Part shown: piece after piece, positions 7,434 to 64,000 of the stretch
Layout of the letters: every line of letters starts with the position of its first letter
Position numbering within the stretch: position 1 is the stretch's first letter
NCBI GenBank assembly: GCA_964016885.1
Contig: OZ024757.1
Span: forward strand, 8,122,001-8,186,000
Reading direction: 5' to 3'
DNA length: 64,000 nucleotides
Source: Eledone cirrhosa
Taxonomy: Eukaryota
Translations under genes and position numbers: made by a program
Notes under the pieces: generated by a model
Told to the model about the DNA's origin: nothing
Databases searched by the model: none
What the model saw: the letters and a program-made list of their open reading frames with translations, nothing else

Positions 7434-8340
7434 ACAGTCATGATAACAATATATTTTATATCACATGTAACAGTGGAATCTGGTTAATTACTGGATCGTT
7501 GCAGGGGTCACATCATTATATTATTTACACACATTAATATAGACATTAAGTAAATCTTTGTCAACTTACCTCCTTCACATATAATCAATGTGTTGTGTTG
7601 TTAGTTGTTACTAAACAACCAAAGAAATAATCTCTTTGTTATCAAATTAGAAGTTTCAATGTTATCAGCTTTATTTCACGACATTAAAGTTGGTGTATCT
7701 TCTTCATCAAATCTGTAGCTAAAGACATAAAGTCAGCCTCATTACTTCATTCTGACAAGATATCAATTTATAACTAAAGATGAAGAAGATACACCAACTT
7801 TAGTCATAAATTGATATCTTGTCAGAATGAAGTAATGAGGCTGACTTTATGTCTTTAGCTACAGATTTGATCGGAAATATATATATATTAGGTTGATATG
7901 TGGTCTAAAATATATATATTGTCTATAAATGACTGATAGCAGATGTTCTGGTGAAATAGTAGTTTTACTACTACAGATTGTAATGGAACTCCTAGTAGAC
8001 ACAATTGTAAAGTAAGAATAGATATGACAGTGTAAGACCGATATCGGGGAGAAAAAACTGTGTATATATATATATATATATATAATTGTTACACAAGATA
8101 TAATTAGATTGAGAAGGCAACAGGTACTCGATGTCGTTGGAAATGATTTAACTCCCTTACCGGTGTCATTAGTTAAAAGTCCCTGATATAATTTAATACG
8201 TTCAGACAGTTCCAATAGTATTTAACCGATAGTAAATGAAAAGGTATCACTCAGTAAAATATCAATTATATATCAATGTAGTGTCTCTGACTGCTAGAAA
8301 TAGCAGTGAAATTATCCATTACAGACTTTTCTTTCTTTAA
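7405..8340 (-). promoter_or_regulatory. Putative promoter and non-coding first exon of ZNF-A; paralog of 22945-23830
   Basis: About 900 bp collinear with 22945-23830; conserved minus-strand donor gaaggag|gtaagt at 7570. Confidence 0.5.
7706..7871. repeat. 74-bp-stem hairpin created by a 90-bp inverted insertion (7709-7798)
   Basis: 7706-7779 pairs with 7798-7871 with one mismatch; the insertion is absent from the paralog at 23221-23310. Confidence 0.93.
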
Positions 8341-29122: not shown

Positions 29123-29735
29123 GAAAGTTAATATTCTGTAGATAACATAGAGTGAGCTACATGTTCCAGGGTAGGTGTTCCATCTCCTACATGATTAAAT
29201 ATTTCATTTCATGAGAAACTACGCCACATCGTGAATTGGTTGTTCCACATTTTACAGGACAGTGAGAAATAGGTTTAAATCAACAACATCTGAACAATTA
29301 GCTTTCCTGGTCTTTCTTGACTTTACACTTGGACTTGAAATATAAAGTACGTATCATTTGTATTGTTAACACAGCAGATATTGTGTACTTTTCTACACTC
29401 CGTGGTGAACAATCCTCATTTATTAAGACACAAACACACACACACACTCTCTCTCTTATACTTTCTTATACCGACATCTGTCTTACACAGTCATATATCT
29501 TCAGAACTTCGAAGAAGTCTTCAATAATTACGATGGAGGACGTTAAACACTTGGACATTTCTACCACACCTGTTTCTACCAATATAGATAGAGTCACAGA
29601 GACATACAGTGTACTGAACAAGGATCATTACACAAAAATATTCCTGAATATAGCTGTGAGATTTGTAGGAAAACTTTCTCATGAGAAGATGAATTATCTA
29701 CACACAAACACATACATATTAAAGACAAACACTAT

Positions 29736-42192: not shown

Positions 42193-42353
42193 GGGGGGAG
42201 GGGGGGCATATTGTTTATATGCTTCAGCATGTACCCATGGGAGGTCGGGTACTCTGTATTACTGCGTGACGCCAGAAGTCACGGTCGTGTGTCATTCTCT
42301 TTGAGAGGTGTATTCAAAATATTAACAAAAATAGACATTCGTGTGATCAAGTA

Positions 42354-42420
42354 TATTTTAAAATACATATTTCAGAGGTACTGAGCTATCTTCAACAGTA
42401 CGTCCTCATCAGATAAAATA
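42354..42420 (-). ncRNA. Type I hammerhead ribozyme motif (inverted copy, changes next to the cleavage site)
   Basis: Minus strand: tattttat CTGATGA gga c gtact...agtac c tct GAAA tatgtatt ttaaaata. Confidence 0.6.
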
Positions 42421-42499
42421 AGATGATGCATGACATACCCTGACATACCCTGCCTGAATCTTAACCATCTACTATGTCAGGGTATGCCATGCTTCATCT

Positions 42500-42566
42500 T
42501 ATTTTATCTGATGAGGACGTACTATTGAAGATAGCTCAGTACCTCTGAAATATGTATAATAAAATA
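42500..42566 (+). ncRNA. Type I hammerhead ribozyme motif
   Basis: Stem I UAUUUUAU/AUAAAAUA; CUGAUGA 42508-42514; stem II GGA-C-GUACU/AGUAC-C-UCU; GAAA 42547-42550; minimal stem III AUA-UG-UAU; predicted cleavage after A42558. Confidence 0.75.
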
Positions 42567-42611
42567 TACTTGATCACACGAATGTCTATTTTTGTTAATA
42601 TTTTGAATTAA

Positions 42612-59668: not shown

Positions 59669-61292
59669 ATTAATGAACTAATTAGCCCCGAACAGCATTA
59701 CAAAAATAAATGATAAGAAATCTGCCTTTTATATGATGGAGAATATCGCAAACTTTCTAAAAGCCACTGAAGACTATGGTGTGATGAAGAATGCCCTCTT
59801 CCAGACTGTTGACCTTTATGACAAAGTAAATATGTTACAGGTTGTTAATACCCTACATGCTTTAGGGAGAAATGTAAATATGTTTAATTAATATTTTATT
59901 ATTTTCCGTTATTTCTAACCCTTCCCCTTCATCGTCCCATTTTTTTTTAAAATTTGGTTTTTTAACTTTTTTTGTTAATCATATTTTCAATGAAGTACTG
60001 TGCCTTTGATTTCAAATAATTTTGAAAAAAAAAAAAAAAACAAGAATTTGGAGAGATCTAAACCTTTAGTTTCCATGTTTCTAATGAGACTGCTAACACA
60101 GGAGGCTCTATGTGGTCACTCTACATGCTAAAAATTAAAGACAAATTTCCCTCAAATCAGGTGATAGACTTAATCTGTTACCTGGTTTAACCCTTCAGTT
60201 AGTATATTTCTAATGAAAGACATTGCCCATGGTTTTCAAGTTATTTTGAAAATAATCAAGAATTTGACTACAGGACCACAAGGGATTATAAAAAGCTGCA
60301 GTTGGTGGAGGACGATTGTGACTGTCTCTTACTGTAGTTGAGCAATAATGATGATCGCTCTCACTCCGATCGATCAAGATCCCAGACCTCATTCGCTTGC
60401 CAAGTGCGGTGGACCTCATCAAATGGGACCAAGGAAACAATGTTTCCATTGGTTTTTACATTTTTCCATTGTTGATACTGGTTGCAACTCCTGGCAGAAG
60501 GAGCAACGTGAAATAATGTCTTGTTCAAGGACACAACAGATCACCCGGTCTGAGAATTGAACTCACAACCTCATGATTGCAAATCCAACCACTAAGCCAT
60601 GTGCCTTCACATCATGATGATACAGAGTTAATTTTAATTCAATGTTTTCAATAAATAATGTTTATTTTAGATAAATTTTGTGACACATTACTGATTACTA
60701 TTTATGAATTCACCTTTTTTTATATCAAACTGCTCAAAACATGTTCTGGTTCTGTTAAACTATTTTAGAAAATTTATATTTATCTATAAACCAAATGCTA
60801 GCGTGGAAGATGGATGTTAAACGACGATGATGATCATGAAACCTTTCATCATAATTCTATGAAAGAACTTTTTAACTTATGTTATGAACATCAATTTAAT
60901 AATGAGGAAGTTAGTTATTTTCAAGTCGCTCCAAATTCTTGATTATTTCTAAAAATTATTTGAAAATCAATCGTAGTCAGTGAACTTCATTAGAAATATT
61001 GTAAGAAAAGGGTTAAGCTTAAAAAAATCTCAATATGATGAACTTAAAAAAATGTCATGTATCTTCTTTATATCTTACATTTGAAATGCTAATATTTTTC
61101 TACTACTAGGCACGTATGAAGGGGTAACCTGGGCCATGCTTAGGACCTAAAGAAGCAGAAAAAAATGCACAATTTTTCACTGAAGAACAGTTACTGGCTG
61201 GCAGCAACATCATTAGTCTCCAAATGGGCTCTAACAAAGGTGCATCTCAAGCAGGGATGAATTTTGGCAAATCTCGAAGCATTGTTGATTGA
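59669..61292 (+). pseudogene. Transgelin/MP20/myophilin-like (calponin family) pseudogene, exons 59669-59873 and 61110-61292
   Basis: CH domain LMN*LAPNSITKIN..AFYMMENIANFLKATEDYGV..LFQTVDLYD..QVVNTLHALGR; calponin repeat IISLQMGSNKGASQAGMNFGKSRSIVD*; GT-AG intron; in-frame TAA at 59679 and 61125. Confidence 0.88.
60191..61012. mobile_element. piggyBac-like MITE with about 85-bp imperfect inverted ends, holding a nested SINE (about 60345-60610, minus) and an RTE tail
   Basis: TTAA|CCCTT...atatttctaatgaa...aataatcaagaatttg, mirrored at 60931-61012 ending AAGGG|TTAA. Confidence 0.7.
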
Positions 61293-61376: not shown

Positions 61377-61504
61377 AAAGTTTTATTTAAAATTGTTGGG
61401 TTACAACAAGTAAATATTTTATAACTGATATAAAGCACTCGACAAGTTTTTGGAGTAGATATACGATATTAAACAAATGGAAACTATATTTATAAAACCA
61501 TATT

Positions 61505-61570
61505 TATTTCATTATACATATTTCAGGGATACCATATTAAAAATATGGCATGCCTTCGTCAGATAAAATA
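61505..61570 (-). ncRNA. Type I hammerhead ribozyme motif
   Basis: UAUUUUAU CUGACGA AGG-C-AUGCCAUAUU UUU AAUAUGGUAU-C-CCU GAAA UAUGUAUA AUGAAAUA. Confidence 0.8.
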
Positions 61571-62089
61571 CAATATATAAACAGTTTTATAAATAATTTT
61601 GACGTACCATATTATAAGCGACCATTATATTAGGAAGCTGTCTGGATAATGAATTGTTTATAATTATTTAGTTATAGTGTTAAGTACAGTTAGAAGAAAG
61701 ACGGAGAGAAAGAAACGGAGAGAAAGAAAAGGAGAGAGAGTAAAAATATATAAATAGATAGGAGAAAGAAATAAGAGTGGCAAACGAAATCAACAGATAA
61801 ATAATAATTCCCCATACATATAGAGAAACTCAAGAGAGAGGGAGTCCTATATATAGAGAGAAGGATAATAATTATTTAAAAGATAAAAATTATTTAAAAG
61901 ATTTAGAAGACCCAGTGATTCTACGGATGCCCTTATATTTAGTATAGAAATTTATCTTGCGTAAAATTTAGAGTAGTTTATTACATCTTTGTTTATATTT
62001 AGGAAGAAGGTTTAAAAAGAAAAAGGTGAAGGAATCAAATGATTTATCGTCAGGTTTCATATATTAACTAAATTTCTTAATTAATTATA

Positions 62090-62345
62090 CTACATTTTAA
62101 ATTTATATTTATATTTAAACGTTGAGTTCAATCTATGTCTGCAGCAACTGAATAAATTGCTCCTTAAATTAAGGAAATTTTTGGACTTTAATATAAAGAA
62201 TACCTCCTCCACACAGAGATCACATGTCTCTGATGAGGAATTAAAAGGAATCCCTTTTGAGACAATATTCCAAAACATCGAATACTTAACATTATCTCGT
62301 TTAAGTTGCCAGAGTAGGCTTGATAGCGAAGTTGAGGATTTTTTG
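62090..62345 (-). pseudogene. C-terminal part of a Penelope-like GIY-YIG endonuclease
   Basis: STSLSSLLWQLK..KYSMFWNIV....FN...TCDLCVEE.FFI.....LNLRSNLFSCCRH matches the C-terminus I recognise from EN+ PLE proteins. Confidence 0.75.
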
Positions 62346-63882
62346 TAATAAACTACTCTAAAATGTATATGCTCCCAATGTATTAAATACATTTTACGCA
62401 AGATAAATTTCTATACTAAATATAAGGGCATCCGTAGAATCACTGGGTCTTCTAAATCTTTTTAATAATTTTTGTTAAATAATTTTTGTTTTTTATTTGT
62501 TTTTTACTCTAATAGCTTCTAACTAACTTTGCAATATATTGTTTGAAATATAGGAAGGATAGATTTCTGTAGTAAATATATGAAGCATATTGTTTTTGGC
62601 CTGAGATACTCTATAGTGTGTTGAAAGTATTTTAATGTTTTGATGTTTCTGTGCTGATATATTGATATTTGATTATCTCTATACAAAGGCCATATGTGTA
62701 TTAACATGCATATAGAAAGTTTATAGAGTTTATTTTATGTGTTCATGTGTCTGTATATGTGCGTAAAGATGCTGGAAAACTCACGCAGATATTTTATATA
62801 TACATATATATATATATTTAGGTATGGTTCTGTATATGTTACAGATATGCATAATATTAAATACATGAACGGTAATCATATATGTGAGGACATGAATATT
62901 AATCGTATATTTTATGTATATATACAGTGAAATTTTTATAACACAAGACATTTTTTTATGACACAAGAAATTATAGAGTTGATCAAGTGAAGTCATATGT
63001 ATGTCTATATTATTGACTAGAGTTAGACATAATTTTCTCTTTTTTCTTTTTTCAGGAAGTACATATACGTGTATATATATATACATATATATTTCCGTAT
63101 TTTTATAAATAGGGTAATTTTTTGAAGGTTTTATCTCAGTTTTTGGTATATTAACCTCAGAGTTTTAAACTAAACATATGGTCATTATTGAACAATGTTA
63201 TTTTCTCATATTATATATATCTATGTCTCATTCATGAATATTGATATTTGCATTTTTATTATCCTTTTCATATGAATTGATAATTCAAATTGATATGACA
63301 TGACGTAAAGATGTAACTGTATCCTTCTCTCTATATATAGCACTTTCTCTTCTCTCTTGAGTTTATCTTTATGTATGATGAATTATTATGTATCTGTCGT
63401 TTTCGTTTGCCTCTCTTATTTCTCTCTTGTTTCTTTTTCACTTCCTCTTATCTATTTATATTCTCTCTCTCTCTGTTTTTTTCTCCTCCCCCCTCTCTCT
63501 CTCCGTTTTTTCTTTTTTCTTTATCTACGTTTTTTCTTTCTCTCCGTCTTTTTTCTATCTGTGCTTAACACTATAACTAAATAATTATTATCCTTCTCTC
63601 TATATATAGGACTCCCTCTCTCTTGAGTTTCTCGATATGTATGGGGAATTATTTATCTGTTGCTTTCGTTTGCCTCTCTTATTTCTTTCTCCTATCTATT
63701 TATATATTTTTTCTCTCTCTCCTTTTCTTTCTCTCCGTTTCTTTCTCTCCGTCTTTCTTCTAACTGTGCTTAACACTATAACTAAATAATTATAAACAAT
63801 TCATTATCCAGACAGCTTCCTAATATAATGGTCGCTTATAATATGGTACGTCAAAATTATTTATAAAACTGTTTATATATTG

Positions 63883-63948
63883 TATTTTATCTGACGAAGA
63901 CATGCCATATTTTTAATATGGTATCCCTGAAATATGTATAATGAAATA
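63883..63948 (+). ncRNA. Type I hammerhead ribozyme motif
   Basis: CUGACGA 63891-63897, GAAA 63929-63932; same stems as the 61505-61570 copy with one G>A change in stem II. Confidence 0.75.
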
Positions 63949-64000
63949 AATATGGTTTTATAAATATAGTTTCCATTTGTTTAATATCGTATATATATAT

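Follow-up and report, generated by a model that had tools for sequence, protein, structure and literature searches.

Our results indicate that the inverted structure at 61456..63997, close to the end of the 64-kb window (the whole stretch of DNA that was analysed), very probably consists of two 5′-truncated 3′ ends of a Penelope-like element (PLE) of the Hydra clade. The two ends lie head to head, are likely the product of one insertion event and are likely inactive now. The locus is an additional family of a published type of Hydra-clade PLE, and its architecture is already known.

Two inverted copies of one 3′ end

Comparing the window with itself gives inverted arms at 61456-61878 and 63578-63997 that are 97.6% identical over 423 columns. 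They differ by seven substitutions, one of which is the outermost aligned base, and by one 3-nt indel. The sequence-only reading had reported near-identical inverted arms with hammerheads pointing outward, and this description stands, with a type I motif in each arm. An inner inverted repeat (61867-61970/62388-62487) and a partial third arm (63320-63588) had also been noticed and were recovered; the third arm is about 70% like the other two and carries no hammerhead.

Copy A occupies 61456..62348 on the minus strand and is a 5′-truncated 3′ end of the element. Read in its own direction, it runs through the C-terminus of an endonuclease, a stop at 62092-62090, a 3′ UTR of about 630 nt and a hammerhead to its 3′ end at 61456. 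The left arm (61456..61878, minus strand) is the distal part of this UTR. The proximal part (61867..61988, minus strand) is common to the start of copy B and is what had been seen as the inner inverted repeat. Copy B (62344..63997, plus strand) is the inverted, 5′-truncated partner. Its start is equivalent to position 61988 of copy A, with a 19-nt exact match at 62344-62362 and 86 nt at 97.7%. Because copy B matches copy A from 61988 downward, the arms and the inner repeat represent two segments of a single 3′ UTR, which adjoin in copy A and lie about 1.1 kb apart in copy B.

Copy B contains sequence that copy A does not. The junction strings reveal a 29-nt insert (62363..62391, plus strand) that adjoins the inversion junction and overlaps a perfect 8+1+8 palindrome at 62377-62393, 30 nt from the junction. 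Further along lie a T-rich spacer of 832 nt (62488..63319, plus strand), which has no protein homology and no other copy within the window, and the diverged third arm (63320..63588, plus strand), which stands in tandem with the right arm (63578..63997, plus strand) through a common TAAATAATT junction. Spacer and third arm make up the roughly 1.1 kb found in copy B only, and TAAATAATT flanks this segment on both sides.

The left arm is bordered on its outer side by TAGATATA only, with no (TA)n run, and the right arm continues into (TA)n, TATATATAT, at the edge of the window. The window ends 3 nt beyond the right arm, and any target-site duplication would extend past that edge into the right flank. 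A tail extension of 30–40 nt was seen on neither the left nor the right arm, and within the 64-kb window the 2.5-kb unit was found in full only once.

The endonuclease remnant and its clade

Copy A retains 86 open codons of the C-terminus of a PLE GIY-YIG endonuclease (62093..62350, minus strand), with CDLC (CxxC), E, N and CRH (CxH). At E≤0.001, 1774 of the 50% representatives are related to the peptide (150 listed), and the best identity is 45–47% over 71–73 aa. One relative is an RT-EN protein of 690 aa, which in turn retrieves 1110 full-length relatives, and from the 120 of these that are listed we built an RT-EN profile. Across the six frames of the window, this profile has one significant match (62347-62117, minus strand; profile positions 619-697 of 701, E 1e-18). 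Only the last 80 or so residues of the endonuclease domain are left, and the open reading frame ends there, which is the position of a C-terminal GIY-YIG endonuclease.

The earlier description of a GIY-YIG remnant is thus right about the endonuclease C-terminus, which is free of stops over its 86 codons, but not about the GIY-YIG motif itself, which is absent from the window in the six-frame profile search. The RT is absent from the window too; hence, there is no RWK, DKT or linker region to read here. Candidate RT remnants in the spacer and inner repeat were rejected. The tblastn hints were weak (best E 0.006 among 120 queries), and a frameshift-tolerant profile alignment of five segments on both strands stayed at shuffle level, with 1 to 20 of 25 shuffles scoring at least as high.

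Hydra-clade elements are described as having an RT with RWK and DKT, a CxCX5C linker, no CCHH, and CxxC/CxH around E and N, and the canonical PLEs in Fig. S7 of the same paper lack the C-terminal CxxC/CxH (PMC8557442). The order CxxC..E..N..CxH is present in our peptide and also in 140 of the 150 phmmer matches listed and 119 of the 120 listed full-length proteins. Among the latter, RW[KR] occurs in 88, DK[TS] in 116 and CxCx4-7C in 117. It is this combination, a signature in the peptide and full-length RT-EN matches with the RT and linker marks, on which the placement depends. Judged from its sequence, the remnant belongs to the Hydra clade, whose elements are PLEs with a C-terminal EN domain. 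The PLE origin proposed before is borne out by the peptide signature and the profile match (E 1e-18), and can be narrowed to this clade.

It had also been proposed to look for the autonomous parent with the peptide. Full-length RT-EN relatives were indeed obtained in this way, but an autonomous parent with the 3′ UTR of the locus was not found among the sequences searched, and the UTR boundaries and the overlap at the junction are provisional. Pfam had no name for the peptide or for eight of its relatives. Among longer proteins, a word-index search for the peptide gave 0 of 30 candidates, and a metagenome scan gave 0 of 537 candidate stretches.

Hydra-type RT-EN proteins form 1110 clusters at 90% in public assemblies (120 listed), compared to 27 families in PMC8557442. 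One of these RT-EN proteins carries the name of Watersipora subatra, a bryozoan, and bryozoans are outside the list given in that paper.

The hammerhead motifs

The left arm carries a type I hammerhead at 61505..61570 (minus strand) with stems I and II intact, a stem III of 3 bp and a predicted cut after 61513. Its counterpart in the right arm, at 63883..63948 (plus strand; predicted cut after 63940), has one more mismatch in stem II, A.C at the third pair. A complete hammerhead had been claimed for each arm; with that mismatch, the right one is less intact than the left one. Each motif consists of an 8-bp stem I, CUGACGA, a stem II of 3 bp + C.C + 10 bp, GAA, and a 3-bp stem III, AUA-UG-UAU, with AUA as the cleavage triplet.

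A second pair lies in a palindrome at 42312..42608, made of two head-to-head, hammerhead-bearing 3′ stubs with (TA)n on the right (motifs at 42354-42420, minus strand, and 42500-42566, plus strand). Compared to the arm hammerhead, the motif there is identical in stem III and nearly so in stem I, but it differs in stem II. Outside the hammerhead region, which is 74% identical over 69 columns, nothing aligns. The palindrome had been taken for the smaller counterpart of our locus. It is a relative, but a member of a sister family. In the left hammerhead of this palindrome (42354-42420, minus strand) the triplet is AUU and the first pair of stem I is disrupted, and each of the two hammerhead pairs in the window has one partner that is more damaged. 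A further inverted pair (41812-41897/42625-42705; 91%, 86 nt) faces inward onto (TA)n and encloses the palindrome; no hammerhead core was seen in it.

The hammerhead pattern has four matches in the window and none in any of 100 shuffles, a contrast that is partly circular because the pattern was derived from these matches. At gathering score, nothing in Rfam matches the window, and none of its hammerhead families reaches E≤10 over the left-arm hammerhead. A metagenome scan with the pattern gave no matches, and a search of the window with a covariance model built on the four motifs gave no further one (next best E 2.1).

In an alignment of the four motifs, 97.4% of cells are paired, compared to 33–58% in slid controls, in which there are no double changes. 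Between the two families in the window, three of the eight stem II pairs have changed on both sides. Shuffles reach the covariation score in 8 of 500 cases and the number of double-changed pairs in 167 of 500, for a set of four sequences that are effectively two families. Since the fold covaries with the sister pair at 42.4 kb, these sequences suggest that the parent elements probably conserved it, with selection acting on the fold.

Conservation in the parents does not imply activity of the present motifs. The active fold of the monomer is predicted to make up 1e-4 to 6e-7 of the ensemble (secondary structure only, no tertiary terms), and the intermolecular stem III is predicted to provide only -2.2 kcal/mol, again with no tertiary terms. 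We would therefore not expect the hammerheads at 61505..61570 and 63883..63948 to cut as monomers; the type with a 3-bp stem III is predicted to need a dimer. For minimal PLE hammerheads it has been reported that monomers did not cleave and dimers cleaved weakly (PMC4209133). Giant squid has 235 hammerhead loci (PMC6962438); hence, hammerheads in a cephalopod are not unexpected.

Similarity to published elements

Hammerheads in EN+ PLEs and inverted insertions of these elements, as pointed out in the sequence-only reading, form a published architecture, which includes Penelope-13_HM of Hydra (PMC8557442). That element is the closest parallel to the arrangement here, with the same inverted 5′-truncated copy and a hammerhead on each strand. 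As at our locus, the Hydra-clade elements described in PMC8557442 have CxxC/CxH around E and N, a stop directly after the endonuclease and (TA)n at the end, which our locus shows on the right side; almost all Hydra families target (TA)n. They also carry a sense hammerhead near the 3′ end with a stem III of 2–4 bp, and stem III at the locus is 3 bp. The locus differs from them in its longer 3′ UTR (about 630 nt in copy A), its longer stem II (3 bp + C.C + 10 bp) and the loss of the RT and the GIY-YIG motif. Hydra-1_Obim of Octopus bimaculoides is the only cephalopod family of the clade given in PMC8557442. In a by-eye comparison, its endonuclease tail and hammerhead differ from ours, and it looks like a different family.

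Similar structures have been described outside the Hydra clade. EN+ PLEs of the rotifer Adineta vaga show the same head-to-head inverted repeats with a palindrome at the inverted junction and have, as at the locus, a long spacer (0.9–1.5 kb) ahead of the 3′ repeat, as well as microhomology deletions, which may have occurred here too; they belong to another clade and another host (PMC3846280). The minimal PLE hammerheads described in PMC4209133 are, like ours, of type I, with a short palindromic helix III and, in helix II, a basal G-C pair that follows an extra nucleotide; the stems at the locus are longer (8 bp for stem I, 13 bp for stem II). In Schistosoma, hammerheads occur in opposite-strand pairs 100–700 bp apart, which resembles the pairing here (PMC4209133).

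Animal non-LTR retrozymes share the type I hammerhead and have been proposed to originate from PLEs, but they form head-to-tail tandems with hammerheads on the same strand, whereas the locus is inverted and contains a remnant of an open reading frame (bioRxiv 10.64898/2026.07.22.740005). We rejected a retrozyme identity, as the hammerheads at the locus lie on opposite strands and the third arm has none.

How the two ends may have arisen

A single insertion could have produced the locus in the following way. An RT-EN protein encoded by an autonomous element elsewhere in the genome would have cut both strands at an AT-rich or (TA)n site, and cDNA synthesis would have been primed twice, either from two primed ends or through fold-back or template switch. 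With both 3′ ends facing outward, the hammerheads of the 3′ UTRs would face outward too, as passengers. Copy A may once have had the roughly 1.1 kb now specific to copy B and may have lost it through a deletion between the TAAATAATT repeats, or copy B may have been copied off a longer tandem template. In the parent, the hammerhead was likely useful for processing tandem precursor RNA as a dimer; in the present copy it likely is not. Both-strand cutting and extension at AT-rich DNA by a PLE protein are described in PMC11167929, and we infer that this activity is a possible route to two outward 3′ ends. Inverted pLTRs are a routine PLE feature (PMC8969392).

At the inversion junction (62344-62350), an inverted 5′-truncated copy is joined by its 5′ end. 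The inner repeat (97.7%) and the arms (97.6%) are equally diverged, which is expected after a single event. One could also argue that equal divergence stems from gene conversion between the inverted repeats, and this counts against taking it as proof of one event. Moreover, the third arm, at about 70%, is too diverged for a single event unless it was already in the template. Two further observations speak against our preferred explanation: the left end abuts TAGATATA instead of (TA)n, and neither arm has a tail extension.

Alternative explanations

Copies A and B could instead go back to two insertions of the same family, the later one inside the earlier. This would account for the 1.1 kb and the 29-nt insert that copy B has and copy A is missing, and a PLE protein can cut AT-rich sites of its own repeat in vitro (PMC11167929). 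We nevertheless consider two insertions improbable. The two 5′ truncations fall on a single point, which a palindrome adjoins, divergence is the same in the inner repeat as in the arms, and head-to-head is the commonest arrangement reported in PMC3846280.

Equally unlikely is a mobile, non-autonomous fold-back element of 2.5 kb: it would be transcribed, its outward hammerheads would trim the RNA, and PLE proteins would re-insert it as a unit. Two fold-backs with paired hammerheads do occur within 64 kb, sharing an identical stem III and a nearly identical stem I, and publications describe non-autonomous PLE derivatives as well as unrelated DNA captured between repeats. However, the two structures have the hammerhead region alone in common, so a single copied unit does not account for both, and the four-motif covariance model has no fifth match in the window (next best E 2.1). 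Each strand has just one sense hammerhead, and the active monomer is predicted at about 1e-4 or less of the ensemble, considering secondary structure only. The PLE-driven family of self-cleaving fold-back elements suggested before is not needed, as inverted 5′-truncated partners and opposite-strand hammerhead pairs are among the PLE products described in published work.

A more elaborate version has a slim chance of being correct. An octopod non-autonomous fold-back driven by Hydra-clade proteins would move as a whole, its ends would be trimmed by outward hammerheads that dimerise in trans via stem III, AUAUGUAU, which is the same in the two sister families, and its transcripts would provide long dsRNA for A-to-I editing. 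Such editing is heavy in octopods.

Even less probable is that the locus serves as a co-opted 3′ module of the mRNA of the gene upstream, with read-through RNA forming a duplex that is cut after 63940. The left arm was said to start about 170 bp past the stop of a transgelin-like gene; the measured distance is 164 nt (from the stop at 61290-61292 to 61456), and the gene is calponin-like. It has CH and calponin-repeat domains and is closest to the calponin-1-like proteins of Octopus vulgaris/sinensis (83%) and Argonauta (81%), which makes an octopod host likely. No AATAAA or ATTAAA lies between the stop and the arm, which makes read-through into the left arm possible, and the predicted duplex of the arms has -663 kcal/mol. 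The gene itself, however, looks damaged. In-frame TAA codons interrupt the CH-domain exon (59670..59874, plus strand; TAA at 59679-59681) and the last exon ahead of its normal stop (61110..61292, plus strand; TAA at 61125-61127), at positions aligned with Gln and Tyr. Furthermore, an exon for residues 1–63 of two calponin relatives was found nowhere in the window, the 59 kb preceding the gene being free of a first exon. Because of the two stops and this missing exon, the copy is likely a pseudogene or partial duplicate, as far as the assembly sequence alone can tell.

The RNA would pose additional obstacles. Seven polyadenylation-type hexamers lie ahead of the right arm, among them ATTAAA at 61468 and 61536 and AATAAA at 62151. 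In the minimum-energy fold, 65 of the 66 nt of the right hammerhead are paired with the left arm. Plus-strand RNA holds only the right hammerhead in sense, and hammerheads on opposite strands cannot dimerise within one transcript. The active lizard PLE, as reported in PMC11167929, shows no RNA ends at the hammerhead site. With the sense motif predicted to be buried and the gene interrupted by two stops, the cut after 63940 in plus-strand read-through RNA that had been suggested is unlikely.

It is hardly credible that the inverted arms are an assembly artefact, a fold-back read or misjoin. Assembly is difficult where extended, almost identical inverted repeats sit at an AT-rich site, but the arms differ by seven substitutions and an indel, enclose asymmetric unique sequence and have a layout that fits known PLE products.

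Implications

Two truncated Hydra-clade 3′ ends in head-to-head orientation thus explain the locus best. With them, cephalopods gain one, and probably two, Hydra-clade families, where PMC8557442 gives a single one. The hammerhead variant, with its covariation and its conserved C.C mismatch, could be used in dimer-cleavage tests. The formation of inverted PLE ends and the role of the hammerhead become no more testable with one truncated copy than they are with published elements. In the literature searched there was no paper on this particular octopod PLE family, which may be catalogued in Repbase or Dfam. A word search of sequencing runs returned nine rows, of which three, all from one sample from which the window itself may come, have at least half of the words. 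Two rows from other organisms, with shares of 0.12 and 0.08, are no evidence, and there was no RNA run among the rows listed.

Other inverted repeats nearby

The longest inverted repeat in the window is 966 nt (32-993/3200-4165) and has 99.1% identity. At 23–24 kb, two nested inverted pairs (23419-23506/24488-24575 and 23511-23573/24278-24342) surround (TA)n/(TG)n. The outer, 88-nt repeat family of these pairs has four copies in the window, further ones lying at 7978-8063 and 29471-29502. The nested pairs may be the ends of other microsatellite-targeting elements.
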